A stretch of 64,000 bases of DNA from IMG/VR virus record IMGVR_UViG_3300042429_001351; one strand, given 5' to 3'. The translations under genes were made by a program, and so were the position numbers. This stretch comes from an uncultured virus (IMG/VR IMGVR_UViG_3300042429_001351). Its lineage: Duplodnaviria > Heunggongvirae > Uroviricota > Caudoviricetes. Positions 3,001 through 59,891 of the stretch are shown piece by piece. The notes beneath the pieces are model-generated. The model made no database searches, had not been told where the DNA came from, and saw nothing but the letters and a program-made list of their open reading frames with translations. Within the stretch, counting starts at the first letter, position 1. Every line of letters begins with the position of its first letter.

Positions 3001-4582
3001 TCGATACACCCATTCTGCTCTCTACAGCACTCGACAACTTGTTGTTATTGTTTTTAAAAGCCTTTTCGTTTTCATCTCTAAAGTCTTGATGATTTCGCAA
3101 TACCGTAGCAATTTCATCGCGGACCACATCGAATTTGTCGGCGAGCTCGTCAATGGAGTAATCGCCATCTTGCCAAGCGCGATAAATTTTATTCTTTTCT
3201 TGTCTATCGAGTTGATTTGAGAAATCATCGTAAGACTCTTTCAGTGCGCGAGCACGCTCTGCTTCCATGCCAAGTTTGCGAGCGGTTTCTTGTAATTCTT
3301 CAGTAGTTGAATCAATTTGCTCCACCTGTTGGACGGCTTGAGGCTTTGGCTTCGCCTCGCTAGCTTTAGGTTTTGGAGTATTAATCGGCTTGCGTTCCGC
3401 AACTCTCTCCGCCTCCCGGCGTGGTGTTGTTGGCTTTGCTCTCTCTATTCGTGCTGGTTTCTTTTCTGCGCTTTGTCCGCGAGACACAACCCTGGGAACG
3501 CGGTCTTCTCTCGGCTCACGGCGTGGGAGATTCACCCTATTTTCGGTAATTCGTTGAGCTAAACGTTCTGTTGGTTTTACGCTTGGTGCACTTGGTTTTT
3601 TGACTGGACCGATTGGATTAATTCCAGGTATCGCTGGGCGTTCGTGAATTGTGCCTTCCTGAACAACCCTGTCAGAGTCGGCGTCTCTTGCATTTTGTTC
3701 GAATGGAACTACTGCAGCTCCAATTCCTCCCATTGTTCTACGCGCGGAACGTCCCCTGTTTTCTACTTCCCCAACTCCGATGCGACCAGCGAGCCCGCCA
3801 CTAAGTCGTCTCCCAACGGCCTTGAAATCTAACTCCTCGTAGAATTCAATATGCTTTTGTCCTCTTGCTGCTCGTTTTCTAGCCTTAGCTGCTGCTCTTG
3901 TATTCGAAACCACTCGCTTGCCAAGCTTGCTTCCTTCTATTTTTTTACGATTGGTAGCAGCACGTTGCCCCACGGTTAAATTTTCCCAAGCTTTTGCTGG
4001 CAAATATCTTCTTGTGACAGTTCCACGTTTTGCTGGCTTGCCATCTATTGTGCGCCATTTTTGCTTGGTCCACCTACCCAAAGAGCGTTGAGTCTTACTC
4101 TTGCTTCCCCTGTATCCACCACCAGCTTTTCTGTATGCATTGGCGAGAAGCTGAGCTTTTCTTGCAGACCACTGGCCCGGTGCTCCACCTTTAGAGCCAG
4201 ACATTATCCGTTCTTTTAGACGGTCGCGTAATTCTGGCTTTGTATAGTTGGCGCTTTTTTCTTTGTATTTTCGTTTCGAAGGAGAGCCAATTATTTGCCT
4301 TATCTCGCGCTCTAATTGAGTTCGACGATATTTACGACCAGAAAAACCTATTCCGGAATATTTTCTGTAGTCCGATTCGTTTGTGCATGGCATCCATGAA
4401 ACACCGCCGGTTCGGTTACTGTATCGACGAATTCCGATGCATCCAAGTTGTCTTGCTCTAACGCGAGCAGATTCTGGGTCTGAATAAGTATCTGGGTCTG
4501 AAGGACGAACGATACGCGCTCCGCCCAGAACATCCTTGATTTCAGAATTTTCGTCTTCGTTAATCTGGTCCATATAGTCCAT
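2..4582 (-). CDS. Giant putative internal-head protein (>1527 aa, runs off the left edge; missing from the ORF track); N-terminal DUF5872-like domain, DxDxD motif, HTH-like segments, ITGAM motif
   Basis: Manual translation from ATG at 4582 gives MDYMDQINEDENSEIKDVLGG...YTKPELRDRLKERIMSGSKGGAPGQWSARKAQLLANAYRKAGGGY...ARDADSDRVVQEGTIHERP...SSITGAMATG. Same frame open at 4582, 2576-2596 and 2-300; not every codon rechecked. Confidence 0.85.
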   Translation of the reverse strand, partial: MDYMDQINEDENSEIKDVLGGARIVRPSDPDTYSDPESARVRARQLGCIGIRRYSNRTGGVSWMPCTNESDYRKYSGIGFSGRKYRRTQLEREIRQIIGSPSKRKYKEKSANYTKPELRDRLKERIMSGSKGGAPGQWSARKAQLLANAYRKAGGGYRGSKSKTQRSLGRWTKQKWRTIDGKPAKRGTVTRRYLPAKAWENLTVGQRAATNRKKIEGSKLGKRVVSNTRAAAKARKRAARGQKHIEFYEELDFKAVGRRLSGGLAGRIGVGEVENRGRSARRTMGGIGAAVVPFEQNARDADSDRVVQEGTIHERPAIPGINPIGPVKKPSAPSVKPTERLAQRITENRVNLPRREPREDRVPRVVSRGQSAEKKPARIERAKPTTPRREAERVAERKPINTPKPKASEAKPKPQAVQQVEQIDSTTEELQETARKLGMEAERARALKESYDDFSNQLDRQEKNKIYRAWQDGDYSIDELADKFDVVRDEIATVLRNHQDFRDENEKAFKNNNNKLSSAVESRMGVSKEPILEAAREGKIKNWDSMLNWVFRSGDSKKNNKNGELEADLFRAFPSGQSPEKDSSKFVLGIRETNRANKRGYVRDIADRNNKPNGFRQLNEIQRTAQSAFDGSSSRWDTNERASNARFYRELSRDNDAGKMWDSSITGAMATGPNMTPQEESDWKRREWKRQQLKNFALLPDRDTKLPSLSSALVGDDIARAISGLDILSDDQVDDLFDKTSVELNDAGLSMQGYRAATAPPSPRELAAAANIKRPLVKEFLDEYKNVNPSGNISRLDPDAMSDKEIDNFFNTFIIPGLINANNPSNSDIRQSVREPLNSTTLSLAEDVAYGIADEYQDLEFRTMLAKRMLQDNGLSTSDPNFDKLVEQMIDNEIDKDVANGIATIEDFLNNIPAWMDRTPEELLNPNTGMPYTHTEWSQGVEESAQPFFDVTNRILDGENVDPIEALAAQEKLNLFIDIGQSNGWLSNDVLRPEYPSRTRRIDNIDDDGASDMDAIDPGQPGEEAGEDGSDEPPAPDDGSEEPPPPPDDDGGSVMGDDEGEISRQIEEFLNELMNYGDKASQPRFEDKYGTLDTPEVWNQPIYDDEGNIIAPAYDGSDNHPFNLDINGNPIDVTKMNLLDQVLYRHWLSNGHFLREWTEDYPGSQVDRYKNLDEMVDVAVPPKELEDAFYKGDINSPDPLAMDQSVASGLDRLIEVIAADEPQWFTRDANGELIGDLNEITRSGSYGSGGMPSVNLSADDYSASQARTKLKEARDAAIKQEHDDLNSSTPASSARRAQLWNLFDSGTLSADEIAFDENLIDTQNLILALKRYALENNISTQKYNDARRVADTAALSRADEFTKKRIQRIKDEFVAKGLEPKDWAKAIDKEIDKQKSIVDKIEIEYSRFRTAFSRQMILVREIFATRPPNREQQTLRDGTILPGWDKSKESATQYLNRIRRWDALHLGTEEKPGPLGELLKKMRFSAREDGRDAASGATARITALAQRNISELQQLRNEYGRVRTQAN

Positions 4583-4693: not shown

Positions 4694-7003
4694 TTATTCA
4701 TTGTTTAAAAGTTTTTCAAGTTCTTCCTGGTGCAGCTGTTTTATTGCTTCAATATCAATATTTATGAATTGCGACCTAGCGAAGTCTGCTAAGTCGAATT
4801 TCTCCGGATTACGTCCTTCGTCAATGTCAATCTGATAAGCAATTTGGAGCGTATCCCGGATGTCCCTGGCTTGAGAACTGGTGACCGAATCGATGGTGTT
4901 TTTTTCAAGGAATTTGGGGTTTTGAATTTTCTTTTTATTAAGGAATGATTCTCTTTCATTTTTCAAAAGTTTTGCAACCATCGCACTGGTTAATTGCTCT
5001 GAATCAAGCAGGGTGGCATCTCGTAGTTCTTCTGTTAAATGTTTTAGTGTTGTTGCTCGAGATATCTTTTCATCCACCTTTGAGTCTACTGTTTCCAGAA
5101 TTTTATCTACTACGTATTCAGGTATTTTTGAATAATCGTCGCTTTCTCGAACCACCGACGTAGATTTCGGGATTGGACTAAGTCCAAAAGATGACCTTAG
5201 GTCGTCTTCTATTTGTTTTATTCTCCTGTCAAACTCCGAGATTAATTTGCCTTCATCGTTCTTAAAGGCGAGACGAACACCAACCTCCTGCCCTTTACTG
5301 TTTTTTGCTGTGACATAAGGGTTATTCAACCATGAGTTATATCTCTCCCAATACTGGGATGGATTTATTTCTTTGGAAAATGTACCGAGAAAGTCGCGCA
5401 CTTGTTGGGCTGCTGCAGTTTGGGGGTTTGCTGGGGTTTCGGAATGTGTAAAAACAACACCGAATGGGTCGTATAGAGCCCCATGGTCACTTCCTGATTT
5501 TCCCCACAGGAGCCCCAATTGTTCTATTTGTTTAGAAACTTTTTTTAATTGCGGAGCATACCCAGTCCCATATCTAGCATACTCTATCCCCCCAAATTTT
5601 GCGAATCCAATTTCAAAATTTCGTTTGCTATGTGCGTTTATGTACTTCAATCTGGTTGAGTCATCTTTCCACCAGAAAGTTAAACCACTAGATGGGTCAC
5701 GTTTTCCTTGCGTAAAATATTTGAAATTGTCAATATCTTTTTGCGCCCATTTTTTAATAAATGGTAATTCTTTATGTGTGTCGCGTTGAGGTCCACCGCC
5801 AACGGCTTCCCTAAATGCTTTTGGACTTATTCCAAGTCCGGCCATCGCACCGGTGATTCCACCATTTTTCAGGTGTGACGAACGGGTGTGATAGTTATCT
5901 GGATTGTTCCAAAAAACATCATTTCCTATTCTGTATCCTGCATCGCGAAGTGATTGAGCCATTTCTCTCGTTGAATTAAACTCGTCATTTAGTCCATGCA
6001 GCTGCATTGAGCGAGCGATTTTGAATAGTCGTGCTCCGTTTATGTTGTTTGTTGGGTCTTGACCGCCATCGAAATCCGGGTTAGCAATCCAGTCATGTTT
6101 TTTTATATCCCAGGCCATCGACTGTAAGTAGAGCCCAGCTGCCGTCCTTAGTGATTCCAGGTATTCTGGATTGTTCTTTAAATCCTCTAATGGCTTTCCG
6201 CTGATGTCGTACCTAAAACCATATCCGGCGCTTCCTCTGTCTATTGGGAATGTCCACCAATCAAAGTGCTGCTTGTGAAACTCTGCCCAATTTCTACTGT
6301 CGGCCCATGTTTTGAATTTCCTAGTTTGATTTGCCTGTTCCGATACAAGGCTATCAATTCCGCCAAATGGGGTGTTGTTTGTTTTCGCAACGTACTGTTT
6401 TGGTTTAGGTTTTTTGAACCTATCCATCATCCCCATTTCGCCAGTTATTGAGTCACCTGGCGTTGGGTCTGGCATCTCTCTGGAGGTGCCATCAAAAATT
6501 AGGCCATTACTATTTGCATCATTGCGTGTTAATGGGTTTTGGTCGCCGGTTATTTTTGCATTATTAAGAATTCGTCTTCCGATTCTGGGAAGAGCTTTTC
6601 CGGTTATGGCATCCCTATTTATCCCGCCGTTTGTTATTGGAGGAATAATCCCACCACCAAAAGCCGTAACCGTACTCCCAGAAGGAGTCGGAGGGGGATT
6701 TAATATATCAGTATCAAGTCTTTCTCCAGAAAACGCTGCTCGACGTCGTTTTTTCTTTTTTACTCGTTTTGGAATAACTTCTTCAGTGTTTAGCTCCTTA
6801 CCAGAACCGCCACCCGTCGAACCGCTGTATGAATAGTGCGCACTGACTAATCCGACGCCATCGACAGATACTGGAGCATCAATCAATCGCTCTTTTAACT
6901 TCTCCCAGCCAGAAACGTTCTCTCCACGCAGCTTTCGTTTTTTTCGATTCTTGCGTTTTGGTGAAGATATCTCCGGCGTAATTTGTTTACTTTTATTATC
7001 CAT
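4694..7003 (-). CDS. 769 aa multidomain putative virion/effector protein (OGFr_N/DUF1810-like and HicA-like segments)
   Basis: Long ORF with a basic N-terminus; KQHFDWWTFP motif; KQIEQLGLLWGKSGSDHGALYDPFGVVFTHSETP segment; ITGEM and ITGAM motifs at segment boundaries. Confidence 0.7.
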   Translation of the reverse strand: MDNKSKQITPEISSPKRKNRKKRKLRGENVSGWEKLKERLIDAPVSVDGVGLVSAHYSYSGSTGGGSGKELNTEEVIPKRVKKKKRRRAAFSGERLDTDILNPPPTPSGSTVTAFGGGIIPPITNGGINRDAITGKALPRIGRRILNNAKITGDQNPLTRNDANSNGLIFDGTSREMPDPTPGDSITGEMGMMDRFKKPKPKQYVAKTNNTPFGGIDSLVSEQANQTRKFKTWADSRNWAEFHKQHFDWWTFPIDRGSAGYGFRYDISGKPLEDLKNNPEYLESLRTAAGLYLQSMAWDIKKHDWIANPDFDGGQDPTNNINGARLFKIARSMQLHGLNDEFNSTREMAQSLRDAGYRIGNDVFWNNPDNYHTRSSHLKNGGITGAMAGLGISPKAFREAVGGGPQRDTHKELPFIKKWAQKDIDNFKYFTQGKRDPSSGLTFWWKDDSTRLKYINAHSKRNFEIGFAKFGGIEYARYGTGYAPQLKKVSKQIEQLGLLWGKSGSDHGALYDPFGVVFTHSETPANPQTAAAQQVRDFLGTFSKEINPSQYWERYNSWLNNPYVTAKNSKGQEVGVRLAFKNDEGKLISEFDRRIKQIEDDLRSSFGLSPIPKSTSVVRESDDYSKIPEYVVDKILETVDSKVDEKISRATTLKHLTEELRDATLLDSEQLTSAMVAKLLKNERESFLNKKKIQNPKFLEKNTIDSVTSSQARDIRDTLQIAYQIDIDEGRNPEKFDLADFARSQFINIDIEAIKQLHQEELEKLLNNE

Positions 7004-16869: not shown

Positions 16870-19800
16870 CTATTTATCTTTCATCGTTGAGAGAATCGCA
16901 TAGAGCTTGACCATTGGAGGTATTTCATCAAGACTAACAGATTCCTGTTTTGCAGATTTAATTGACGAGCCAAGTCTCCCAAATATCGGTTTTACAATCT
17001 TGGAGGCAACATCTCTGATTTTTTCTGTCTCCTCAAAGTCGTACAGCCCACCATCAGCACCAGCTCTAAATTGTGGAACGATATCAAGGTCTTTATTCTG
17101 TCCGAAAAGCCACCATGCGCTAAATGCTTCAGCAAATTTTTCAGCGTTATTCGTAGCGCCGTACTTCGTTACCGATGATAGCTGACCAAAATCCTTTTCT
17201 AGCGATGTACTCCAACTAGAAGCATTATTTGACTTTCTTGATGCTAATGTATCGAGCACATGACCCATTTCGTGCACCATTACACCGTAAGCAAGACGTT
17301 TCGCCATCTCTTCTTTTTTTGCTTTGATTTTTAATTCATTTTCTGGCGTACGAGTTATTTTGTTGTTGTTTTCAAATTGCAAGAAGATGTCATGAACGCC
17401 ATGGTATTTTTTCCCAATTTGTGCTTTTAGATTTGATAATGCCTGTCCGCGCAATTTTGTATCCATTACAAATGTATCTGCTATTTCATCAGACGCATTG
17501 GAAATTCGCCCAACCGGTATTTCCATTTCAATTATTCCAGCATCATCGTCCATGGAGACAAAACCAAGGAGCCCTTCTTCATCGTTTGTGGTTAAGTCTC
17601 TTTTGACTCTAAAACGCATATCAGAAGCAGCTCTTCCGCCAAATAAATCTTCTGCATCAAAATTTGACAAAATGTCATCTAGGGCTTGAAGCGATGCAAA
17701 ATGCGCCGTTTTGTAGGAATCGCCCTCATCGAATATGTCGTCAATTTCCATTTCTAAATCGTATTTTTTTTTAAAATATTTGGTCTGCTCTGCGGCTGTT
17801 CTGCCAAATTTTGCTTCATGCTCCTTTGTAGATGCGACCTTAACCACACCAGACTTGTCGCGGCCATAAGGGAGTGTCTTGGGTCCTTTTTCAACTACCT
17901 CATCAAGCGTTCTACCTACCGACATTTCTCCCGTTAGCGAGCTCTCAACCACGGTATTGGGTTTTTTTTTAGTGCTCTGCGAAAGACTCATCGCGCCAGT
18001 TATTCCTGAGGCGATGTTGTCTTTATCCCCACCACCCTTTGCTTCACGCATGTCACTGATTATGTCTTCCATCTGCTTTTCAATTTTGTTTCTTATTGCT
18101 TCTTTTGCAGTGGTTTTTTTAGATGCTTTTTTATCGAAGGCTTTAGGGTCGAAAACGTTAAGTCCATATTTGTTAGTTATTGAAAGCTTTATGCCTTTTT
18201 TGTCCATTGACTTTCGCATGGCTTCTGCGGCTTCTAGTCTGAGGTATTTATCAACGTCCTGCTTCAGGTCGAACTCGGCTGCTCCAAAGCGGTTCATGCC
18301 TTTTTGAATTTTGTCAGGTATCACAAAGTCCCTTGGTGAGGAGGAAAGCATGTCTCTAATGATTTTTCGTTCTTCTTCGGTTGGATTGATTCTGTCCATT
18401 GCGGCATCGGAGATAATCTTTTCCTTAAGACCATTTAGGAAAGATTCGCTTTCCTTGATGTATGCGTCTTTGCCCATTGCCGAATTTGTTGCTGGAGAAT
18501 CAGGGTGACCGTCAATGAAGTTTTTTGGAATCGAATCGAATGGTATTTTTATTTCGTCAATATCGTCGGAGTTAAATCCCCCAGCAATAAACGCCTCACG
18601 TGGCTCCCACGAGCGACCTGGGCTTGTCGCGTACTTTTCTTTTCTATATGCGTCGTGGTTATTTTTAAAGCTATTGTATAGGTGCTCAATTATGTTTTCT
18701 GCACGGTTGTCAGTCTTGAAAGCAGCATCAACATGAGCCCTAGCAATCACTTCATTGTCTGAGCTGTTCATGCCGACTGGCTCAATATGGTTATTGAACA
18801 ACTCGCCGTTTCCGTACGCTGTTCTGTCAGCAACACCAGGGTTTAGAATAACTTCAGCGTTTCCAAAATTCCAGTCATTACCCCTAGTTCGCTTGGAGTG
18901 GGGAAAATCTACAAGGTTGGGGGAGTATCTTTCCGGATTCTCTTTACCACTGTTTTTGAGGAATTTATTAATGTCGCTCTGTTCTCTTTGAAGTTCATCC
19001 ATGTGTAGAACAAAACCCGATGCCGGACGTAACTCAACTGGGGTGTCTGGGTGTATGCCAATATCGGCTTCGTATTTTGCAAGTATCTTGTCGAGACCTA
19101 CAATCTCGTTTCTTTGATGGCTGTTCTTGAACCCGTTTTCAATAAGGTCTTTCAAGAATCTTCCAGGAACGTGCGTGCGAGGCTGTTTATCTAAACCCTC
19201 GTGGAAGTCAAGAATTGAAAACTCCAGTTCCTTCTTTAGCTCTTCGATTGGTGTTTCGTTTAGGTATCTGTGGAAATCTGGGTTAAGGCCATTGAGAGCA
19301 TTCTTAACATCAAATATGTTCTTCTTCCAGTCGTCGTCATTTGGGCCGTCTGGTGGAGGGGAGCCAGGTGGGGCAGCGGCAGCAGCCTGTGGTCCCTCTG
19401 AATTCGGAATGAAGTCAGTCTTAATCACGTCCTTCAACGCAGTAAGAACATTAATTCGTTCTTTGTTTCTGGCTTCCTTTGTCTCACTGATTAGCGTTGG
19501 TCCGAGCATCGTGTCGGCAGGGTTCAAATCTTTTATATAGCGCACACTTGTGTCTCCGCCAAAGTTTCCGCCAGGCCCATTGATTGAGCGCTTGATTTCT
19601 GCGGTCTTCCGATTTGATTTTCTAGTTGAAGATATTTTCATCGATGTTCGCATCGCGCCAGTTACACCGCTGCTACTTGATGATTGATAAAGAGGAGCGG
19701 ATAGAACCTTTTCTGGACTTGGGTCTATGCCTTCTTTTTTCAGCTTGACCGCTCTTGCCATAAGCGCATGTGCTGCTAGGTTGTAGTTTTCGGGTTGACG

Positions 19801-22800
19801 AGCACTGCGAAGTCGTGACGAAACACCGAATATTGGCTTATTAACCCCGACTAATTGTCTTTCATCTGATGGCCCTAGATTGCTGACAATAGTGTCTTCG
19901 GTGTCTCCCACGACAAGATAGGCCGAACCACGAAGGTTATCTTCCCATCTTATGTACGAATCTTGGTCTTTGACATCTATTGCAAAGGGGCCAGCTCCCC
20001 GTGCGGTATTTTGTGCTTCCGTGTAATACTTCGCTACGTCCTCTGGGATATCTGCAGCGGCATTTCTACCGTAGTATCCATCTGTAGTAACACCGCTTGA
20101 TGCTGGATATGCGCTCAAAAATCCAAAGTCTGGGCTTTCGTTAATTCTCGCTGCGAGTTTGCTGGCTCGAGTTTGTTGTGCCTGAAGTTCCGTGAGCCTT
20201 CTGTTCCCATCTTCAATCAAGGGCCTTATTCCGTCTCGCAGTGGAAGTGCTGTTATATCTAGTTCTTCGCCCTGTTTGGCGCCATACTGGGAGGAAATAC
20301 CGAGCAGTGAATTGATTGAATCTGCTTCTTCCCTGTTTTGTGGTGTGAACTTTGTTTGTCCTGCATTCAGGGCAGACATTATTGTTTCATATGTTGCTAA
20401 TTTTTTTGCATCTTGTCGGAATTTTTCATTAAAATTACCAATTTGCATTCTGTTTAGGGCGCCAGTATCGCCAGGTGAACCAGCTCCCATCCCAGCAGTA
20501 GATGTTCGTGAAGGATTAAGAACTCCGCCATCCAGTTGCGCCTTGCCTACGTGAATCACAGCTTCTTGATTACCGTCGAGTTTGAACGCTTCAATATCGC
20601 CATCGTTTCTTCGTTTTTGGAGTTCTTTACCCTCCTCGACGAGTCTTCTGTATTCTTCCTCAGGCACGTCTTCTATGTCGAGAATTCCTTGCTCTACTCT
20701 TTCCTTCTTGGTGCGCGCTAAGAATTCCTGAAGAACGACTTCTTTTTTAGAATCAGAAATTTTCTTTTCTAATTCTTGTTTGAACTTGGCGAGCCCCTCT
20801 TTCTCAACTTCTTCTTTTGTTAGGTTGCGTGGAGTTACGTCAGCGTCAAATCCGTCTAGGGATGTCTTGTCTTTACCGCGAGATAGGACAACTCCAAACT
20901 CCCCACCTCTCCACTCACCAGTCGCCTCAAGTGCAGCCATGGCTTTCTCTAAACTATCGACCCTATTCCTGGCTTTTTCGCTTCGTTTATCTTGCTTATC
21001 AGTTGATTCGGAAACTATATTTCTAAAGTTTTGAGGAGCCAGGGAAACATCCATCGAGCCAGTTACGCCGCCATTCCGCTCAAGTACTTGCTGTTCAAAA
21101 TCAACGATTGCTTTTTCGAAATCATTCTGAGCTTCAGTAACTCTTTCCTTTTGCGACTTCATATCGAGGACGGTGGTTGGAAGGTTCTTTTCTATGGCTT
21201 TATCAACCAACGCTGCCATTACCATTCCTGCCGCCTCAGAGTCTGCGTCGGCAGTGTGATGCTTGGAACCCAAATCAACGCCAAGATATGCCGTAATATC
21301 TGCTAGTCCATTTGATGCTTTTCTTGTTTCTGGAATCACAGTGCCGTCATCCAGTATTTTTTCTTTTACGAGCTTGGATGGGCCTTCTGGGTTTTCAGGT
21401 GTCCAGCGTGGCAGTGTGTGCTCTGATATGTCTTTTGTATCTAGGTAACCAGAAGGCCTCCACTGAATCCCAAGTTTTTCTAGAGTCGCATCAAGTACAT
21501 CTTTGTCAAACGGTGCATATTGAACTCCAAATATTGCATTTTCGCCGGCAAAATCCGCAAGCATCTGATGGGCCTTTAGCATGCTTTCCTGGGTGTCCAA
21601 ATACGCATCGGTCAGTACATTGCCATCTTTGTCTTTAAGGTATTTCGCAGACCATTCACCTAATGGTTGGTCTGGTTTCATGAATACATTAAGGCGGTCA
21701 ATTACTTTTCCACCCTTCATTCGTACGGCACCTATTTGGACCGGAGAACCCTTGCCTATAGTGCGACCGTCGCTGTCGTTTTCTATTCCAGTTGTTTCAT
21801 AGTCAAAGAAGATTATTTCTGTTTCGTCATATATTTTTTTAAACTCTTCCCAGGTTTTTGCGCTTCCAAATATTTTTTGAGCATCGCCGAGAAATGAACC
21901 ATACGTAGGTTCGCGCGGGTAGCGCGGTTTGTCTTGCTCGACAGACATTGCACCAGTAATCCCACTTCGCAGACGAGCTGCGCTGAGTGGCTGCCATTGC
22001 TTTTTAGGTTTTTTGTTTTTATTTCTAGCTTTTCTTTCGTCTTGTTTTACCCACCCCTGAACCTGTTGTGCATGCAGGCTGGTTCGGCGCTGGCCACCAC
22101 CCATGTCCATCGCCCCAGTTAGATTCCATGTTCCAGGTCGAACACCAAAGGTCCCAGACCCTGAATCGTTGAGTCTTCGTGTCACTTCTGCGGAGGTCAT
22201 CGGCGTTCCAGGAATTCCTATTCTTGCCGTTCGTGAAGGCCCGGTACCTGAAGCCGCGACTGCATCAGAGAATTCTTGAACATAATTGGCGTTTCTCGTA
22301 CTCTGTCTAACCGGTCCCCTACCACCTGGTCTTGGTGACCTGAGATTAAGCGGGTATCTTTGCGGCGAGAGCATTCTGGCCTGGCTGTTAGTTTCGCCAT
22401 AGAGTCTTCTAGCTGCGTAATACTCTGCTCTTGTCTCAATAGGGTTAGAAGCAGCATATTCCCCACCAGCAAATTGAGCCATAAGCATTAGGTCTTCAGC
22501 TGTATCGGTAATGTTGTTTACTACCGCTTCAGTAAATGCGTCGTAAAACTCAACGAGGTCTTTTTGTAGGTCTGCAGAGTTAAAGTTTCCGCGTCCTCCC
22601 ATGTACTGTCTAGTCTTGAGATTTTGAGCGGCATCCATTACGAGCTGGATGCTCGGACTATTCATTGGATTCCGCATGTTGGTGAAATCTATTTCCCATC
22701 CACCGTTCTCTTTTCCAGGACGCCAAGCTGGTGCTCCACCAGTAGTGGCACTGCCGGCAAAGTATGTAGGGTTTGACGGGTATCGAGCCATTCTGTTTAC

Positions 22801-24282
22801 GTCGAATCCAAGAGCCTGCAATGCTGTAGAGAAGTGCGCAAGGTGTCCAAATTCGTGAGTGGCCGTATAGTGCATGTCGCCCTCGACGGAATCATGTATT
22901 CCGCCACTGCGTGCATCGCCGTTATGAAAACCTAACGAGCTCTGGAACAGAGCTGCAGGGTTTATTCTCATAATGACGTGAACTCCGCCCTGTCCGGCAT
23001 TCCGTCCAGCCACTAGTTTTTTCCCTGCAGCACTTACAAGTCTCCCGTTGGAATCTATAGCTGGTCCGAAATGGTCCAGTGAAACTTCAAATGCACTCCC
23101 CATGTTGTAATCAACCTGGAACTGAGTTACTAATTTTGCATGGTCCGGATTCGCAATTGCCTCAACAATTGTTGCCTCCCAGAACGCCCGAATTCCCCTT
23201 TTTGCCTCACCCTTTTGCTCCCATCTCAGATTCGATGGAATCGCATTTTGGAAATATGCTTTAAATTCATTCGGCTCAACATTGGGGAACATTTGTGTCA
23301 TTACCCTCATGAAGGTTGCTTCATCGGTAATGTCTCCGATGTCGTCACCGTTCGGAAGTTTTATCAATCCGGAACGTATCATCTCGTGATTTGTCATAGC
23401 AAGCATCGTTGACCGTTTACCACGTTGGGTTTTTTCTTTCCGGCCCAAAAGATAAGGTTCACTTGGTCCAGACCTTCTGGATGGGTCATACCTCTGACCG
23501 ACACCTCCAGACATTGCTCCAACAATTCGCCCACCAACAGCCATTCGGCTAGATACTTCGTCGTACCCCATGTCCAAAAAATCTTGCTGGGTTAGGTTGT
23601 TCATGTCTCTTGCTGCTTGGAATCCACTTGGGGTTCTTCCACCAACTTGTGACGCATCCGCAATTGCACTTCCTGCACGTCTTGCTATTCGTCCTGCGCT
23701 TCCGGCGGCTGTGCGTGGAGAGACAATAAAACAGTTAGACATTCTTTGGTCAGTAAACTGGTTTGCTGCCGGACTTCCTTCAGGACAGCGAAGTTTGTTC
23801 TTGTCATCCACCCATGGCTTTAAACCAAACTTCCCCATCATGGAGCGTGCAAGAAGGGTATCTATTTCGTCCCTAAGTTTCGGACCAAGAGACTTTGAGT
23901 CAAGATGTAAATCTGGGTGTTTAAATTTAACTTTCGGCTTTTTTGTTTGATATTCTTTTTGCAAATTGTAATAATTTGTATCTGTATGCAATGGGTTGCC
24001 AAACTTACACAAATGCATAGTCATCCCTGGTGGGATTAGGGGAAGTGGGTCACTTTGCTTCCATGTTTTAAGAAATGCGTCGTATGGATTCTTAAAAGGA
24101 TTTTCTTCTTCTTTTGATTTTTCGTCTTTTGGTTTAGACTCTTTTGGCTTGGCTTCTTTTATGTCAAGGGTCGGACCAGTAATTAATTTTGCGTCCTTGT
24201 TTTTGACAGCTCTCGCTATCGCCCTGTTGATGAAATCGTTTTGTCTATAGCCCACTGAAGGTCTCCCAGCGCGAAGCCACAC
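16870..24282 (-). CDS. 2470 aa polyvalent protein/polyprotein: zincin, DEDDh exonuclease, ART-like, DUF3626-like, second zincin
   Basis: THEFGH and VHEMGH (HExxH) motifs with downstream YA/GxxNxxExxAE; IIFFDYETTG...FD...HHTADAD exonuclease motifs; six [ILV]TG[AES]M motifs; start codon uncertain. Confidence 0.8.
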   Translation of the reverse strand: MWLRAGRPSVGYRQNDFINRAIARAVKNKDAKLITGPTLDIKEAKPKESKPKDEKSKEEENPFKNPYDAFLKTWKQSDPLPLIPPGMTMHLCKFGNPLHTDTNYYNLQKEYQTKKPKVKFKHPDLHLDSKSLGPKLRDEIDTLLARSMMGKFGLKPWVDDKNKLRCPEGSPAANQFTDQRMSNCFIVSPRTAAGSAGRIARRAGSAIADASQVGGRTPSGFQAARDMNNLTQQDFLDMGYDEVSSRMAVGGRIVGAMSGGVGQRYDPSRRSGPSEPYLLGRKEKTQRGKRSTMLAMTNHEMIRSGLIKLPNGDDIGDITDEATFMRVMTQMFPNVEPNEFKAYFQNAIPSNLRWEQKGEAKRGIRAFWEATIVEAIANPDHAKLVTQFQVDYNMGSAFEVSLDHFGPAIDSNGRLVSAAGKKLVAGRNAGQGGVHVIMRINPAALFQSSLGFHNGDARSGGIHDSVEGDMHYTATHEFGHLAHFSTALQALGFDVNRMARYPSNPTYFAGSATTGGAPAWRPGKENGGWEIDFTNMRNPMNSPSIQLVMDAAQNLKTRQYMGGRGNFNSADLQKDLVEFYDAFTEAVVNNITDTAEDLMLMAQFAGGEYAASNPIETRAEYYAARRLYGETNSQARMLSPQRYPLNLRSPRPGGRGPVRQSTRNANYVQEFSDAVAASGTGPSRTARIGIPGTPMTSAEVTRRLNDSGSGTFGVRPGTWNLTGAMDMGGGQRRTSLHAQQVQGWVKQDERKARNKNKKPKKQWQPLSAARLRSGITGAMSVEQDKPRYPREPTYGSFLGDAQKIFGSAKTWEEFKKIYDETEIIFFDYETTGIENDSDGRTIGKGSPVQIGAVRMKGGKVIDRLNVFMKPDQPLGEWSAKYLKDKDGNVLTDAYLDTQESMLKAHQMLADFAGENAIFGVQYAPFDKDVLDATLEKLGIQWRPSGYLDTKDISEHTLPRWTPENPEGPSKLVKEKILDDGTVIPETRKASNGLADITAYLGVDLGSKHHTADADSEAAGMVMAALVDKAIEKNLPTTVLDMKSQKERVTEAQNDFEKAIVDFEQQVLERNGGVTGSMDVSLAPQNFRNIVSESTDKQDKRSEKARNRVDSLEKAMAALEATGEWRGGEFGVVLSRGKDKTSLDGFDADVTPRNLTKEEVEKEGLAKFKQELEKKISDSKKEVVLQEFLARTKKERVEQGILDIEDVPEEEYRRLVEEGKELQKRRNDGDIEAFKLDGNQEAVIHVGKAQLDGGVLNPSRTSTAGMGAGSPGDTGALNRMQIGNFNEKFRQDAKKLATYETIMSALNAGQTKFTPQNREEADSINSLLGISSQYGAKQGEELDITALPLRDGIRPLIEDGNRRLTELQAQQTRASKLAARINESPDFGFLSAYPASSGVTTDGYYGRNAAADIPEDVAKYYTEAQNTARGAGPFAIDVKDQDSYIRWEDNLRGSAYLVVGDTEDTIVSNLGPSDERQLVGVNKPIFGVSSRLRSARQPENYNLAAHALMARAVKLKKEGIDPSPEKVLSAPLYQSSSSSGVTGAMRTSMKISSTRKSNRKTAEIKRSINGPGGNFGGDTSVRYIKDLNPADTMLGPTLISETKEARNKERINVLTALKDVIKTDFIPNSEGPQAAAAAPPGSPPPDGPNDDDWKKNIFDVKNALNGLNPDFHRYLNETPIEELKKELEFSILDFHEGLDKQPRTHVPGRFLKDLIENGFKNSHQRNEIVGLDKILAKYEADIGIHPDTPVELRPASGFVLHMDELQREQSDINKFLKNSGKENPERYSPNLVDFPHSKRTRGNDWNFGNAEVILNPGVADRTAYGNGELFNNHIEPVGMNSSDNEVIARAHVDAAFKTDNRAENIIEHLYNSFKNNHDAYRKEKYATSPGRSWEPREAFIAGGFNSDDIDEIKIPFDSIPKNFIDGHPDSPATNSAMGKDAYIKESESFLNGLKEKIISDAAMDRINPTEEERKIIRDMLSSSPRDFVIPDKIQKGMNRFGAAEFDLKQDVDKYLRLEAAEAMRKSMDKKGIKLSITNKYGLNVFDPKAFDKKASKKTTAKEAIRNKIEKQMEDIISDMREAKGGGDKDNIASGITGAMSLSQSTKKKPNTVVESSLTGEMSVGRTLDEVVEKGPKTLPYGRDKSGVVKVASTKEHEAKFGRTAAEQTKYFKKKYDLEMEIDDIFDEGDSYKTAHFASLQALDDILSNFDAEDLFGGRAASDMRFRVKRDLTTNDEEGLLGFVSMDDDAGIIEMEIPVGRISNASDEIADTFVMDTKLRGQALSNLKAQIGKKYHGVHDIFLQFENNNKITRTPENELKIKAKKEEMAKRLAYGVMVHEMGHVLDTLASRKSNNASSWSTSLEKDFGQLSSVTKYGATNNAEKFAEAFSAWWLFGQNKDLDIVPQFRAGADGGLYDFEETEKIRDVASKIVKPIFGRLGSSIKSAKQESVSLDEIPPMVKLYAILSTMKDK

Positions 24283-25829: not shown

Positions 25830-26203
25830 GAATTTTGCTCCTTGTATTGCATCGAACTTGACAGACAGCCTTTTGGGTTGCTGCAACCACCACACGGATT
25901 CATGCGTTTTTCGCCTGAAACTATGCAGTGATATTTATATGAAATTTTTTGTTGCTGTACAGGTTTAGCATAACCCATAACAGGGGTTCTTTGGCTGACG
26001 TTACCTACTTTAGGACGTGTGAAGCGTGTCGATTTACCACTTGCGAGATGAGTCTCTTCGGACTTGATTTGAGTCTCGATGACATCCAGTTTCTTATTGA
26101 GTTCTCCCACCAACTCAAAGTTATTTTGGACAATCGCTGAGTCGCGCTCAAATTCAATATTTTTCACAGCGTAATTGAGTAATTCCGTACGTTTCTCGTT
26201 CAT
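25826..26203 (-). CDS. Hypothetical protein, 125 aa, C-terminal Cys cluster
   Basis: ORF within the head operon; YHCIVSGEKRMNPCGGCSNPKGC. Confidence 0.75.
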   Translation of the reverse strand: MNEKRTELLNYAVKNIEFERDSAIVQNNFELVGELNKKLDVIETQIKSEETHLASGKSTRFTRPKVGNVSQRTPVMGYAKPVQQQKISYKYHCIVSGEKRMNPCGGCSNPKGCLSSSMQYKEQNS

Positions 26204-26211
26204 TTCGTGGG

Positions 26212-28704
26212 TTATCCCGAAAAACTAGATAGTTCGTAGTTCTCTAACGGTTGTTCTTTTTCAATTTGGGATATCACATTGACGAGGGCATTAACCCCAT
26301 CAACGCCGACAGAGGCAAGCCCTGTCACCCATATTCCGTCATCGTTTGCGGTTGAATTAAAACCGTGGTATTCAGCGACAGTGTCAACAGCTGATTTGAT
26401 ATCGAATATAAATGATGGGTGAATATCTATCTGGAACCCATCAATTTGATTCGATTGAATCTGGAGGCCAGACTTGACCTCTAGGTCATGATTCTCTGAA
26501 ATTGATACATATACGCTCAACTCAGACTTACCTCTAGCTGCTGCTGCTCTGGCAAGGACGTTGCTTCTACGCTCACGCATAATTGCCTGACGAATCCTTT
26601 TGCGTGCTTTTTCTTCGGTAATCATATTTCTTTTTGCAAGATGTCTGATTGCCGCATCCATAGCGCGCTTTGAATCGCTAGGTGGCTTTGATTCATCAAT
26701 CCCAAATTCACGCAATTGAGCAAGAATATTATCGCCACGATTCCTCAAGCCCATTGCTCCAGTAACCCCACCAGCCGGAACCCTCTGAGGTGGCGCTGGT
26801 ACGGACGGACGGCTCGGGCTTGGTGCTGGAGAAGGGCGGCCTGGGACACGACTTGGAGCAGGCTTCGGAACGCGAACTGGCTCGGGAAGTCTTTCTGGAA
26901 TTTTGTCTGGTATTTCTTCTGGCTTTGCAGGCATTTTGGGCTCAATGTACGGAACATCATCTTCGCCGGTTATGGGGTTCGTGGTTCTGCCATCGCTGTC
27001 GCCGTCGCGTGAAGGTTTACCCATTCGACCAGCAGCACGACGAGCACGACCAATTGTCCCACCGAGAACTTTTTCGTTAATTGCTTCAAGTGCATTCATT
27101 AGCGCATTTTGTGCTTCTGGACCGTACCAGTCCATATTCGGGATAGCAAAACCGTCTGCAAGCAACTCGACTTCAAATCCGTGCGAATTTCCGATTTCAT
27201 TTGCCGCTTCGTACATTTCTACATTTTGTGTTTTCACAAACATATGTAGACCTGGTGTTTCGTCTTTGAAGGATGTCCATGATTTCATTGCCGATTTACC
27301 TGTACCGCATTTTCCGCCACACCCACAATCACTGTGGCTGTCGTCATTTCCATGGAGTTCAGAATCACGACGCATTAGAGAGTCGTAGAAATCTCCACCG
27401 TCAACAAATCTCTTGGGTTTGTCACTGGTAAGGGCAACCGAAGGTCCGCCATCAAGCGGGATATAAACGGTTTCTGGCTTAACTTCGTGCGCCGTGCCAA
27501 ACATAAATCTTTCGCCATCCGGGGTGTGCCATCCAGCCCGCATTGTCGACGTCGAGTTGTCTTTGTCTAAATCAAAGATGACCGTACTTTCATCCGCTTC
27601 ACGGATGGCTACCTGTCCACCGAAATGCATGCTTAGATGGCGAACAAGGTCGCCCATTCTCCCGCTTATAGGGTTTATTGAAGAACTCCCACCAGAGTAA
27701 ATTGACATGTTTTTGACCTCAATTTCGGAGTCTGACTTCTTTTTTGTGTTGTCATATCTGTCCAAAAGCCGACGTCCTTTTGCTGCGAGCTTTGCGGCAT
27801 CCTCGGTGTTCTGTGGCACTGGTTCGCCCCACGCCGCAGCTGAAAGCGCAAGTCGTGTTGGCTTTCCGTTTTCATCCTTCATTGGACCGCTTGGATTAGT
27901 GAAGAATCTTGTAAGGAATGAACCTTTGCGGCGCATCTTTTGTGGAGTGTCAGCAGGACCCTTGACGCCTGGTTTCAAATTTGCACCTTCGGTCTTTTTG
28001 AAGTGAGCCCTACCTGCTGCAGTTAGCCCGCCATCTGGGTCCTTAAGTGCAGACTTTGCCTCTGCGCTATCGGCTGGAACGCAATTTGGGACCATATCCC
28101 CATTCTTTCCCTTTTTCATTCCAACTTGCTTATACCCAGGCCAGCATGGACCTACTTTTGCAGCCTTCACCGATTCATCTGACTTAATCGAGATGGTTCC
28201 AGTTAACTGGTTGGCACCATGAAGAACAGGACTTACCTCGTATAGTTCAACCTCCTTAAGGAGGTTGGCTTGCTTCTTGCTATCGAAGAAGGCATCAAGT
28301 GTTTTGTAACCAATTGACCACTCTTGGTCTTCGCCAAAGAATGTTATGTTATTGAATGCTTCGCGACCGCGTTCCGATTTAAGGTTAAATTGAACTCTCG
28401 TATAGAGTCCACCCACGCCATTTGCTCGCATTTTTGCAGGCAAACGTGGGTCGTTTGGACCAACCTCGTAGATGTCTAAAACTTTACCAATAGGCTCATT
28501 CCAGTTGTGACCCCAAACGACTCGTGGCTTACGTCTACGGAGCGAGGAATCAAAGCAACCAGGCAAGCAAATGTCGCCAACACTGTCCTTGTTCCCAATA
28601 GCGGCAGTGAAACATTCAACGATACCCAATGCCTCATTGGTGCTTATCTGTCCAGGCATGGACTTGTATTGAGTTTCAGTAAAGTTTTCGGTAATATTTG
28701 TCAT
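26212..28704 (-). CDS. HK97-family prohead maturation protease with long C-terminal extension (830 aa)
   Basis: GNKDSVGD, WGHNWNEPIG, WSIGY and LYEVSPVLHGAN motifs; immediately downstream of the portal; extension has a CWPGY...VPNCV motif and a DUF6321-like segment. Confidence 0.9.
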   Translation of the reverse strand: MTNITENFTETQYKSMPGQISTNEALGIVECFTAAIGNKDSVGDICLPGCFDSSLRRRKPRVVWGHNWNEPIGKVLDIYEVGPNDPRLPAKMRANGVGGLYTRVQFNLKSERGREAFNNITFFGEDQEWSIGYKTLDAFFDSKKQANLLKEVELYEVSPVLHGANQLTGTISIKSDESVKAAKVGPCWPGYKQVGMKKGKNGDMVPNCVPADSAEAKSALKDPDGGLTAAGRAHFKKTEGANLKPGVKGPADTPQKMRRKGSFLTRFFTNPSGPMKDENGKPTRLALSAAAWGEPVPQNTEDAAKLAAKGRRLLDRYDNTKKKSDSEIEVKNMSIYSGGSSSINPISGRMGDLVRHLSMHFGGQVAIREADESTVIFDLDKDNSTSTMRAGWHTPDGERFMFGTAHEVKPETVYIPLDGGPSVALTSDKPKRFVDGGDFYDSLMRRDSELHGNDDSHSDCGCGGKCGTGKSAMKSWTSFKDETPGLHMFVKTQNVEMYEAANEIGNSHGFEVELLADGFAIPNMDWYGPEAQNALMNALEAINEKVLGGTIGRARRAAGRMGKPSRDGDSDGRTTNPITGEDDVPYIEPKMPAKPEEIPDKIPERLPEPVRVPKPAPSRVPGRPSPAPSPSRPSVPAPPQRVPAGGVTGAMGLRNRGDNILAQLREFGIDESKPPSDSKRAMDAAIRHLAKRNMITEEKARKRIRQAIMRERRSNVLARAAAARGKSELSVYVSISENHDLEVKSGLQIQSNQIDGFQIDIHPSFIFDIKSAVDTVAEYHGFNSTANDDGIWVTGLASVGVDGVNALVNVISQIEKEQPLENYELSSFSG

Positions 28705-28803: not shown

Positions 28804-31056
28804 TCAGTTCAAGCCGAATTTTAATCTGCAACGACAGTTCATTGTCATGCGAGCTGGGGATAGTGGGTCGCCTGGGAACCTAATTACATCATCACCAACA
28901 TTGAATGCATCGCCAACACTAACCGTTTTCCCGTCGAGAAGTCTGTGCTCTGCTCTTGTTTTTGAATCCTTCAAAGAAATCCAAGTTTTTGATGCCGCAC
29001 CAACCTGTTTTGCTCCAAAGTAGACACCAGCATTATATGAAGTCTGCGCCTCATGTTCAGCAATGACCCTTTGCTTCTTGGAAATTAGATTAATAAAGAT
29101 TGCCACCAGGGCAGCCTTTAGCATTCCGGAACGGTCCTCGTCATCTTCAAGCGCAGAGGATATAAGTATGGCTGCTGCTATTTCTTCCTTGGTTGATGAG
29201 TTGACTTTTTGCATTCTTTCAATTTGTGCATCAATCAACTGTTTGATTTCTTCTTCATCAATTTCTGTCGGCATTCCTGTCTGTTCATTTATCAGACGAG
29301 CTGCGTCATTTGTAATACCGGAAAGAAGCGGTCTGAAGTCTTCAAGCATTTGCTTGTCCCAAACATCAATGTCAAAAATTAAACTCGATTCTAGGGAGCC
29401 TGCTGCAAGTGCCTTTTTTGATTTTGCGCCCATGGCCTTTTCAAGGACAACTCGTTGCTGCCGTTCGAAAAATCTATCTAAATTTCTATCCAAAATTTCA
29501 ATCCAGCGTTTTGAGTTTTCTTCTGCTTTTGAGTCCCAGTCATCGATTTGTTTGTTATCTGATTTTGACTGCATCGTCGGTTCGTATGCAGACAACGCAC
29601 TCGGTGACATTTGTGGTTGTCCACCCTGCTCTGCTGCGAGTGCTTCAGTCATAGTGTTTGGCTTTTGATTCATGTCAACTATTTGTGCCGGTATCTCTTG
29701 GTCTTGCGGCGCACCTTCAACTGGAACCTCTGGTGTTGGCATTACCCCCGCTGCTGCGACGCCAGGCATACCTGGCTGTTGTCCAGCCGCTGCAGCATCG
29801 GCTGCTTGCTTGGCGGAGTCAAACTCTTTGTCTGTATAACCAATCGGAGTAAGGTTTGGATTGGCAAGAAGAGCCTGCATGAGGTCTGATTTGATATGAA
29901 TTCTTCCGGTTGCGGCTCGATACTCGTTGCCACTTATAAGACCATTCTGAAATTCGTCTAACAAATATCTTTCACGCTCTTGCTTGTAGAGAATAAGGAT
30001 TGGTACATCAGACGTATCGAAGTCAATATAAAACTCATCGTCCAGTTCGTCTAATGCCCGACCAATCAACTCCATGTGCGGAAGCATTGTCTCGTTCCAA
30101 AAAACCCTATGTTCTTCAGCGGCATTTGAGAATGTTCGACCGGATGCATTGCCAATAACGGATTCCGGAACACCGAAGGATGCAAGGATTTCCTCTTTTG
30201 TAATCTGTCGCATCTGTATATAGTTGGCATCACGAGGGGATGCACCTGTATCGACGTAATCAACACCGTCGTCAGATGAGACAACAGTTATAGAGCCAGC
30301 CCTATTTATATTTCCACGAAATCTACTGCGAAGCTCATCTTTGTCATCGTCATCAATTTCTCCTTTTACAACAAGCAAGCCGCCTGGCCGACCGTCGTTA
30401 AGAAGGAAGTTGCGATTATATATTTTAGAAAGGTTTTCAATTTCAATGGCGATACCAGCAGACTCAAGTGGAGTCATGGACAGGTATGGGTCTAGTGGAT
30501 GTGGCTTTCTTACCCAGCAAACATCTTCCGGCTTTAGGATTACCTTTGTTCCGTTTCGCATATCAACTTCAAAACCGGAAACAAACTTTTTCGGGTCAGG
30601 TATTGGCGATGTGTGTTGTGGCGGAAGTAATTGAAGGGCGATGATTCCACCATCACGACCGCGTACTTTTTCAATAAATGCCCCACGTGAGGACATTAAC
30701 AATTGAGAGGAAAGTCTGTATCTAAAAACAAATGAGTTTTCACCCATGTTTGATTTAGAGTTCAAAATATCCAATATTTTGTTACTCTGATTGTCTGTGA
30801 CAATTTTCCCAGTTGGGGAATTATCTTTTCGCAACATTGCAGGTAGGCGGGCCTGATTTCCTGCTATCGCATCAATGCACCTGTTAACCCAGGTGACCTT
30901 GGCCATTCCTTCTCTGTAGGCACGCTCAATATCCCAAGAGTCTCGATATGGCTTTCCAGCCTGGCTTGGGTTGAACGCGACAGGAGCACCTGGCCCGAGT
31001 ATCGATTTCTGTCCTGGTGACTGGAGAGATTTGTTTTGCGAAGAGTTCCACGCCAT
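28804..31056 (-). CDS. HK97-family portal protein fused to a MuF (SPP1 gp7-like) head morphogenesis domain
   Basis: WVNRCIDAIA, ILASFGVPESVIG, FWNETMLP portal motifs; C-terminal KTWI...DSKTRAEH...DG...RFPGDP...NCRC. Confidence 0.92.
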   Translation of the reverse strand: MAWNSSQNKSLQSPGQKSILGPGAPVAFNPSQAGKPYRDSWDIERAYREGMAKVTWVNRCIDAIAGNQARLPAMLRKDNSPTGKIVTDNQSNKILDILNSKSNMGENSFVFRYRLSSQLLMSSRGAFIEKVRGRDGGIIALQLLPPQHTSPIPDPKKFVSGFEVDMRNGTKVILKPEDVCWVRKPHPLDPYLSMTPLESAGIAIEIENLSKIYNRNFLLNDGRPGGLLVVKGEIDDDDKDELRSRFRGNINRAGSITVVSSDDGVDYVDTGASPRDANYIQMRQITKEEILASFGVPESVIGNASGRTFSNAAEEHRVFWNETMLPHMELIGRALDELDDEFYIDFDTSDVPILILYKQERERYLLDEFQNGLISGNEYRAATGRIHIKSDLMQALLANPNLTPIGYTDKEFDSAKQAADAAAAGQQPGMPGVAAAGVMPTPEVPVEGAPQDQEIPAQIVDMNQKPNTMTEALAAEQGGQPQMSPSALSAYEPTMQSKSDNKQIDDWDSKAEENSKRWIEILDRNLDRFFERQQRVVLEKAMGAKSKKALAAGSLESSLIFDIDVWDKQMLEDFRPLLSGITNDAARLINEQTGMPTEIDEEEIKQLIDAQIERMQKVNSSTKEEIAAAILISSALEDDEDRSGMLKAALVAIFINLISKKQRVIAEHEAQTSYNAGVYFGAKQVGAASKTWISLKDSKTRAEHRLLDGKTVSVGDAFNVGDDVIRFPGDPLSPARMTMNCRCRLKFGLN

Positions 31057-59314: not shown

Positions 59315-59889
59315 AGAATCTCAAAAAGATAAGTGACGATATATATATTGTAAACCTTGTTAGCGGTCGACTTGCTGCGAGGATTATGGATTCCATAAAA
59401 TTACTCGAAAAGAAAGAGCCATGTGGAGGAAGTGAACGAAACCAGTTTACGACACATTCCATAAGTGATTCCGCCTGTGTTGGTGGAATAAGACTTACAA
59501 CAATTCTGCAATCGATATTCAAGAGACTAACAAATCAATACTTTCTGAGTACTGGCGTAAGACTAGAAGTTCCATCGTTCCCGAATCAAAGCTGCAATAT
59601 CAAGAGTCAAGTCAAAGGCCAATCACACGGGGTGCATACCGATGGAGGGGACAAGGATTACGGAATTGGCAGGATTCTCCACTCGTCGGTTATATGCCTA
59701 AATGATGACTACGAGGGCGGGAGCACGCAGTTTTACCTAACTGGGACAATGGAAGAACCAAACATTGATATTGACATAAAACTCAAGGCAGGTCAAGCAT
59801 TAATATTTGACGCGAATCTGAACTATCATGGGGTTACCGAAGTCCTATCTGGGACTAGGTTTAGCTTGATTCAATTTTGGAGAGAGTAG
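59311..59889 (+). CDS. 2OG-Fe(II) oxygenase (prolyl 4-hydroxylase-like)
   Basis: HTD...LNDDYEGG...HGVTEVLSGTR. Confidence 0.88.
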   Translation: MKNLKKISDDIYIVNLVSGRLAARIMDSIKLLEKKEPCGGSERNQFTTHSISDSACVGGIRLTTILQSIFKRLTNQYFLSTGVRLEVPSFPNQSCNIKSQVKGQSHGVHTDGGDKDYGIGRILHSSVICLNDDYEGGSTQFYLTGTMEEPNIDIDIKLKAGQALIFDANLNYHGVTEVLSGTRFSLIQFWRE

Positions 59890-59891
59890 TC

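Follow-up and report, generated by a model that had tools for sequence, protein, structure and literature searches.

A lineage-specific five-residue motif at the module borders of a giant polyvalent protein in an uncultured myovirus: a possible cleavage code for capsid cargo

We describe a giant polyvalent protein encoded in a 64,000-nt stretch of DNA (the window) from an uncultured virus of the Caudoviricetes; the window lies within a 108-kb IMG/VR virus record (IMGVR_UViG_3300042429_001351), and an identical copy is present on a 169-kb record rated complete. The gene occupies positions 16870..24282 of the minus strand, and the modules of its product are separated by copies of a short motif, phi-[ST]-G-x-M (phi, hydrophobic residue). 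The motif is enriched in the genome, homologues shuffle their modules at it, sister lineages carry a different motif in its place, and in one of them a prohead protease is fused to a chain of this kind. The explanation that we tentatively prefer is a head-module cargo polyprotein whose lineage-specific sites are cleaved by a protease of the phage, most likely that of the S78 family.

The uncultured myovirus, with a genome of ~169 kb, would then have at least two cargo polyproteins, and this gene would encode one of them. Its chain would comprise seven or eight modules (a tag region, a lethal factor (LF)-like zincin, a basic peptide, a DEDDh exonuclease, module 4, a SopF-like module with an ADP-ribosyltransferase (ART) fold, a 17-aa peptide and a second zincin), joined by short disordered linkers with the lineage signature [GS][GS]-phi-[TS]-G-x-M, and these linkers would be where a maturation protease encoded by the phage cuts. 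The likeliest cutter would be the S78 prohead serine protease, whose gene lies 2 kb upstream. Cutting probably divides the chain into individual enzymes, which are packed in the capsid and injected; it would take place inside the prohead, and the enzymes would remain in the capsid until they pass into the host along with the DNA.

Junction motifs and modules of the polyprotein

The open reading frame (ORF) reported in the initial annotation proved intact for 2470 aa from a GTG at 24282, and residues are numbered from there. The likelier start is an alternative GTG at 24255, because a Shine-Dalgarno-like GGGAGA lies 8 nt upstream of it and the resulting 2461 aa agree with the database gene call. 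All six motifs named in the initial annotation were found: LTGAM at residues 721-725 (22108..22122), ITGAM at 775-779 (21946..21960), VTGSM at 1073-1077 (21052..21066), VTGAM at 1540-1544 (19651..19665), ITGAM at 2094-2098 (17989..18003) and LTGEM at 2116-2120 (17923..17937), all on the minus strand, the last one only 17 aa after the preceding site. These six copies of [LIV]TG[AES]M compare with 0.13 expected, and the maximum in 20,000 residue shuffles was 4. The annotation had described a TGAM motif; we replaced this by the broader phi-[ST]-G-x-M, which is common to four other virion-module proteins. A seventh, degenerate site is likely to be IVGAM at residues 253-257 (23512..23526, minus strand), between the tag region and the first zincin, where relatives read ITGAM, ISGAM or VAGAM. 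Across the six frames of the window, 14 of 15 TGxM tetrapeptides were preceded by L, I or V. The Thr, Gly and Ala codons of the sites vary synonymously and no conserved GGAG was seen; because of this codon variation the signal is one at the protein level. A DNA-level signal or an internal translation start at the invariant Met was considered and rejected on the same grounds, as well as on the motifs of sister lineages, which lack the Met.

The chain combines at least two disparate domains (RNase_T, an ATLF zincin, a second zincin and a SopF-like fold), and its description as a polyvalent protein of discrete modules was borne out by Pfam and fold matches. The N-terminal region (residues 1-252) is mostly disordered and contains the tag RCPxGxPAANQFT...NC (C166-x17-C184; 23731..23787, minus strand). 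Both cysteines of this predicted CX17C element were found to be invariant in 40/40 aligned homologues from all lineages; likewise, in the predicted model of the module 1 region the first ~270 residues are mostly disordered and hold the invariant tag R165-C-P...A-N-Q-F-T...N-C184. A similar element (RCPEG...FTD...C, near residue 134; E 5e-4 within the genome) occurs in a 690-aa protein of the same gene block (13721-15793, minus strand). The 690-aa protein has counterparts of 36-39% identity in sister lineages; a role of the tag in capsid docking would be a guess.

Module 1 (22123..23511, minus strand) was annotated as a zincin, and HEFGH is indeed present at residues 476-480; H476, E477, H480 and E616 were invariant in 40/40 aligned sequences. 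Foldseek gave no match to its fold at E <= 0.001. A wide search returned weak matches to zincins (lethal factor with Z 6.4, others 3.9-5.3), and the predicted structure may be that of an LF-like zincin. Module 2 is a basic peptide of 49 aa (residues 726-774; 21961..22107, minus strand), conserved in close relatives. For module 3 (residues 780-1072; 21067..21945, minus strand) the call of a DEDDh 3'-5' exonuclease held: RNase_T (PF00929) matched residues 824-961 at E 7e-9 (36.8 bits vs a Pfam cut-off of 24), the module matched phrog_192 at E 1e-15, and the motifs FDYETTG and HHTADAD are readable in the sequence. Module 7 (residues 2121-2470; 16873..17922, minus strand) is the second zincin that had been proposed. 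Its HEMGH lies at residues 2337-2341, and ATLF (PF07737) matched residues 2281-2395 at E 1e-6 with 28.8-32 bits vs a cut-off of 27.4. The Pfam search gave no match of MPTase-PolyVal (PF18818) in the 2470-aa protein; the same family matched a giant protein of a sister lineage at E 9e-43.

Modules 4 and 5 called for a revision. The initial annotation had placed a possible ART-like unit in module 4 (residues 1078-1539; 19666..21051, minus strand), and this call found no support. The module consists of a long helical hairpin followed by an alpha/beta part, and no family could be assigned to it; its conserved residues include H1244, R1406 and E1474. There was no Pfam match, a search of PDB sequences with modules 4 and 5 together (1078-2093) gave 0 matches at E <= 1, and all homologues found had at least 1358 aa. 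Matches in the Atlas were weak (at most 0.81) and included a cluster of crAss cargo proteins at 0.80. The ART-like guess is unsupported because the fold searches returned only coiled-hairpin matches, to residues 1-120 of the module, the globular part having been barely probed since it was folded jointly with module 5.

The ART fold resides instead in module 5 (residues 1545-2093; 18004..19650, minus strand), which had been labelled as DUF3626-like. An AlphaFold model of residues 1078-2093 was built with a 49-row alignment (mean pLDDT 82.7), and residues 1561-2036 of it matched Salmonella SopF (7dn8_A) with a VIA Z of 12.2 and an rmsd of 4.3 A over 236 of 292 residues (Foldseek probability 1.0). 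SopF was the sole match with Z >= 8 among 48,161 chains, the next rows being at 6.8 or below; DarT, OspC3 and CopC gave Z 5.7-6.9 against module 5. Sequence identity between module 5 and SopF is 8-10%. In the BFVD, a protein from a Nodularia phage that is listed as 'DUF3626 domain-containing protein' matched the module (E 2.9e-5). Pfam DUF3626, which we take to be PF12294, gave no match to residues 1545-2093 at E <= 0.1. SopF itself carries DUF3626, according to a part of the report on it (PMC6682159), and because module 5 matches SopF the label is supported by the fold, though not as Pfam sequence membership. Shorter matches to module 5 were only pieces on contigs of 0.9-4.3 kb, and because these contigs span so little the pieces are no evidence of split genes.

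The module borders coincided with the motifs, as had been claimed. Pfam matches above the curated cut-off lie between sites in the 2470-aa protein, in a 3687-aa giant of the same genome and in the giant of sister phage G002. In the model of residues 1078-2093, pLDDT falls below 50 at model positions 457-468, and the motif at 1540-1544 corresponds to model positions 463-467; a mismatch between domain boundaries and motifs was looked for here and did not occur. The homologues gave the same picture. Altogether 61 were found, with lengths of 1,452-3,594 aa, and those numbered P0002-P0028 and P0033-P0035 bear 3-7 copies of phi-[ST]-G-x-M per protein. P0009-P0013 lack module 4, P0005 and P0012 each have an additional module, and the modules are arranged as 1-4-3-5 in P0014 and as 1-x-4-x-3 in P0015-P0021. 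Among the 29 homologues with the same motif, 82 boundaries with a differing neighbour were counted, which are not independent because close relatives share junctions; 62 of them are no more than 10 aa away from a motif and 73 no more than 20 aa, and the remaining nine, more than 20 aa away, are all C-terminal tails. The suggestion that homologues swap modules at the motifs is thus carried by deletions, insertions and permutations alike.

A lineage-specific code across genomes

The motif is not confined to the 2470-aa protein. In the 83 ORFs of the 108-kb record, [LIVM][ST]G.M occurred 27 times vs 1.9 +/- 1.4 expected, and in the complete 169-kb genome phi-[ST]-G-x-M occurred 29 times vs 2.5 +/- 1.6 (maximum 8 in 300 shuffles). 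Of these 29 sites, 23 fall in five virion-module proteins: six in the 2470-aa protein, ten in the 3687-aa giant, two in a 769-aa protein, two in the S78 protease fusion and three in a protein in the tape-measure position. Their consensus reads [GS][GS]-I-T-G-A-M-[GSA]-[VL]. Because the flanks of the 23 sites differ, the idea of a repeat-borne artefact was dropped. An ORF scan found no copy in the portal or in the 520-aa, 690-aa and 2108-aa proteins of the block. The genome therefore holds a short motif, above chance, that is common to several head proteins including a protease fusion, as is the case for cargo of prohead proteases.

Related phages carry other motifs at the corresponding places. 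A second group of homologues lacks phi-[ST]-G-x-M and has [LF]SSG[RK] flanking module 4, which is up to 73% identical; the flanks of module 4 in a third group read GL.SSTS. The complete genome of sister phage G002 contains [LF]SSG 20 times vs 2.6 expected, 17 of them in three proteins, and phi-[ST]-G-x-M only at the chance level (2 vs 2.5). Conversely, [LF]SSG is at the chance level in the 169-kb phage (3 vs 3.1). Further lineages, with capsid proteins 67-68% identical, use LRSSG (LRSS 12 times in two ORFs) or GLAS[SR]T.

The N-terminus of the tape-measure protein follows the lineage as well. A copy of the phage's own motif is present near residue 40-50 in five of six genomes with a defined motif: NLTGAM in the present phage, RLTGAM in G007, KFSSGR in G002, KLSSGR in G008 and GLASSS in G005, with none recognisable in G006. 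In a further genome with no defined motif (G009), the tape-measure N-terminus (L129, G009:C1:115512-119744) has a long poly-Gly/Ser/Arg tract where the others bear the motif. Since the tape-measure motif follows the lineage, the code would act in trans across the genome, and this argues against an enzyme strictly confined to proheads. Judged from the sequences, the motif is a genome-wide, lineage-specific code.

Candidate cutting enzymes and alternative explanations

The phage encodes a prohead protease with conserved H66 and S130, as part of a fusion protein of 830 aa (26212..28704, minus strand). Its S78 domain (residues 28-171) matched PF04586 at 43.3 bits vs a cut-off of 21, and H66 and S130, which we take to be the catalytic pair after HK97 gp4, were invariant in 4/4 sequences. 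The domain is followed by DUF6321 (221-292) and by middle and C-terminal parts. The fusion bears two sites of its own, ISGRM at 346-350 (nt 27655-27669) and VTGAM at 647-651 (nt 26752-26766), both on the minus strand. The first comes after the protease and DUF6321 domains and reads NPISGRMGD here vs NPVTGRMGA in a relative with an 81% identical protease. In a sister lineage, DUF6321 is found as a separate gene downstream of the capsid gene (L011:23237-24820), where it is followed by an Arg-/Asp-rich repeat tail.

In the phages G002 and G001, S78 (71-72% identical) forms the N-terminus of a polyvalent protein itself. The G002 polyprotein has 3,567 aa with UvrD, sigma70_r4, ArdC-N plus MPTase-PolyVal and WYL domains, and its 14 [LF]SSG sites all lie between domains; each of the 14 SSG tripeptides in it is preceded by L or F. 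To our knowledge, the precedent in every studied phage is a prohead protease, and this was counted for S78. Both S78 and the embedded zincin fit as the cutter, and S78 is slightly favoured.

Several observations weigh against cleavage by S78 within the prohead. The protease is 71-81% identical across lineages with differing motifs, and the embedded zincin is far more divergent; because of this greater divergence between motif types, the zincin follows the change of motif no less closely than S78 does. The tape-measure-position protein bears the lineage motif near residue 45, beyond the expected reach of a protease confined to the prohead, and G006, of the LRSSG type, has no recognisable copy in its tape-measure N-terminus. 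No site of the capsid protein was seen to follow the motif: S-phi-[ST]-x stands near residue 136 in both motif types, the SLTG at 136-139 does not vary with motif type in 80 relatives, and PTG/TLGRG is found where the mature HK97 chain begins in the alignment. The capsid protein thus does not tell the two candidate enzymes apart. A two-residue indel in the capsid (SLTG vs SFTSG in G002) had been considered as a change following the motif, and it failed across the 80 relatives. In addition, cleavage, the cutting enzyme, packaging and injection are all steps that we infer.

The most serious alternative, possible though rather unlikely, is that the motifs are cut by the polyprotein's own zincin (module 1, possibly module 7), in cis or in trans; the place could be the cytoplasm or the filled head, or the cuts could follow ejection. 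A zincin with HExxH at about residue 480-660 is present in 56/61 homologues and its position is always N-terminal; H476, E477, H480 and E616 do not vary in the alignment, and a site of the form WN-phi-[ST]-G-x-M always directly follows the zincin module. The zincin is so divergent between motif types that BLAST aligns the tag region only, and a virion-carried or soluble zincin could reach the N-terminal site of the tape-measure protein. Autoprocessing by the MPTase was proposed by Iyer et al. in the part of their study considered here; for a phage polyvalent protein it is a prediction there as well (PMC5512222). The same part of that source states that N4 vRNAP, ArdC and TraC1 bear MPTase domains yet are packaged or transferred uncut (PMC5512222). 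Zincin cleavage also leaves unexplained both the conserved sites in the S78 fusion itself and the fusion of S78 to a polyprotein with 14 sites, and the L104 and L119 polyproteins are without HExxH in the loci examined, though a zincin may sit elsewhere in those genomes.

It is improbable that the motif is not cut at all and serves as a conserved hinge or docking peptide (for capsid loading, for a chaperone or for passage through portal and tail), with the protein ejected whole like N4 vRNAP. Such an uncut role draws on the full-length delivery of N4 vRNAP, ArdC and TraC1 in the cited passage (PMC5512222) and on the inferential standing of cleavage, and the tape-measure site would suit a signal, common to proteins with an exit via the tail, that serves export or threading. 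A docking signal, however, need not mark every module border nor recur 17-50 aa apart, the sites in the protease fusion are easier to read as self-processing, and a strict five-residue, lineage-private code with which imported modules are re-fitted is what a protease and its substrate typically show. Least probable is that a host protease cuts the sites, or that the protein is an intracellular multi-enzyme which never enters the virion: differing hosts could be mirrored in the lineage motifs, and packaging, too, is a prediction, but the gene lies inside the head-assembly block, only virion-module proteins carry the motif, two kinds of protease are encoded by the phage itself, and in the sister lineage such a chain is fused to the head protease.

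Head-assembly block and relation to known systems

On the minus strand, positions 31056 down to the left end of the window form one gene block. It begins with the portal, which carries a C-terminal MuF domain (28804..31056, minus strand) and is 38-43% identical to actinophage portals, followed by the S78 fusion, a 125-aa protein, an acidic 520-aa protein and the 2470-aa ORF. Next come proteins of 116, 228, 690, 2108, 127 and 769 aa, and finally the giant that leaves the window. The 769-aa protein (4694..7003, minus strand) has the sites ITGEM (nt 6434-6448) and ITGAM (nt 5843-5857). The 3687-aa giant is a second polyvalent protein with NUDIX, HTH, DnaJ and Zeta-toxin-like kinase domains (Pfam); its N-terminal 1527 aa lie in the window (2..4582, minus strand), with one of its ten sites (ITGAM, nt 2576-2590). 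An HK97-type capsid gene is located just past this giant, outside the window, and its product is 74% identical to the phrog_10 major head protein and matched HK97 structures at E 1e-49. All giant proteins thus sit between the portal/protease genes and the capsid gene, and because of this flanking the 2470-aa gene lies inside a myovirus head-assembly block, the portal/MuF head-morphogenesis context of polyvalent proteins. The plus strand carries terminase, sheath, tube and chaperone genes and the 1671-aa protein in the tape-measure position (43022..48037), whose sites are LTGAM at 45-49 (nt 43154-43168), LSGAM at 588-592 (nt 44783-44797) and ITGAM at 852-856 (nt 45575-45589). No close cultured relatives of the 2470-aa protein were found in the phage collection searched.

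Some neighbouring proteins deserve mention. The 520-aa protein (24333-25895, minus strand), between protease and polyprotein, has Cys-rich stretches and a weak PepSY match; its C-terminal ~300-320 residues are 59-74% identical across lineages, and a role as scaffold or internal head protein is possible. The 2108-aa protein (7398-13724, minus strand) has no family match and no motif copy, unlike its giant neighbours. The N-terminal ~150 residues of the 3687-aa giant (2-4582, minus strand; L025:226-11289, minus strand) show weak DUF3721/DUF5872 matches, and in other lineages they are kept in a protein of 242 to 890 aa directly upstream of the capsid gene. From sequence comparison they look like a constant head-associated domain bearing variable effector tails. 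At 59311-63761 and beyond, at least five 2OG-Fe(II) oxygenase-like paralogues (phrog_61) stand in a row, and these adjoin a glycosyltransferase and a radical-SAM-like gene.

Prohead proteases that process head-internal proteins are established in other phages, as with T4 gp21, which acts on IPI-III and Alt, and with phiKZ gp175. SPN3US gp245 is another case of this kind, and in the portion of that study drawn on here all identified cuts, bar self-cleavage of the protease, remove N-terminal propeptides (PMC10052503). The present system resembles these phages in having a short motif common to many head proteins; there, the phage protease recognises the motif and the products stay in the capsid and are ejected. 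It differs from SPN3US in that the sites would split a chain into 7-11 modules and not remove a propeptide. Its protease is of the S78 family (HK97 type) and not of the T4 gp21 type, its motif lacks Glu, and a tail protein carries the motif too.

Polyvalent proteins were defined by Iyer, Burroughs, Anand, de Souza and Aravind in 2017, who, in the portion of the article available, proposed release by embedded peptidases, drew an analogy to the polyproteins of RNA viruses, unified their MPTases with lethal factor and predicted delivery of polyvalent proteins with the DNA (PMC5512222). The 2470-aa protein resembles theirs in having unrelated enzymatic domains in one giant chain and a gene near portal/MuF head genes, and its zincin may correspond to their zincin peptidase hub. 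Here, by contrast, every junction bears a defined five-residue signature, which is found genome-wide including the protease fusion and the tape-measure-position protein and which differs between sister lineages exchanging the same modules. The sister lineage also has an HK97-type S78 at the N-terminus of the chain, whereas assemblin-like peptidases are reported only at C-termini in the text consulted (PMC5512222). That text, supplements excluded, contains no junction motif, and the word 'Linker' occurs 0 times in its main part (PMC5512222); full-text literature searches likewise turned up no description of such a junction code. Compared with known polyvalent proteins, what appears to be new is the lineage-specific junction code at the module borders. 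Module 5, by its predicted model, shares the DUF3626 ADP-ribosyltransferase fold with Salmonella SopF (PDB 7dn8/7dn9), differing from it in being a phage module inside a polyprotein and not a type III effector.

The family is large, with 379 matches of the capsid gene in IMG/VR. In a wider and more doubtful proposal, a family of uncultured myoviruses of ~140-170 kb would load thousands of residues of effector enzymes as polyproteins with private, fast-evolving cut codes (ITGAM, LSSGR, LRSSG, GLASST); modules would move horizontally and be re-fitted to the code of the recipient, and with the same code on the tape-measure N-terminus there would be one protease-substrate language for all that leaves the virion with the DNA. 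If true, this would amount to a plug-and-play effector cassette system, and the private code may insulate a phage from co-infecting phages.

Polyvalent proteins are regarded as the weapons that a phage delivers first, and their loading and release have been mostly a matter of proposal. The present family offers a testable rule, with a five-residue junction code, two candidate proteases and the same module found between different codes. Should this rule hold up, sequence could be enough to predict the mature products of giant phage proteins, of which thousands are uncharacterised, the family would provide a modular scaffold for studying the loading of capsid cargo, and tailed phages would be seen to use true polyprotein processing, as RNA viruses do.

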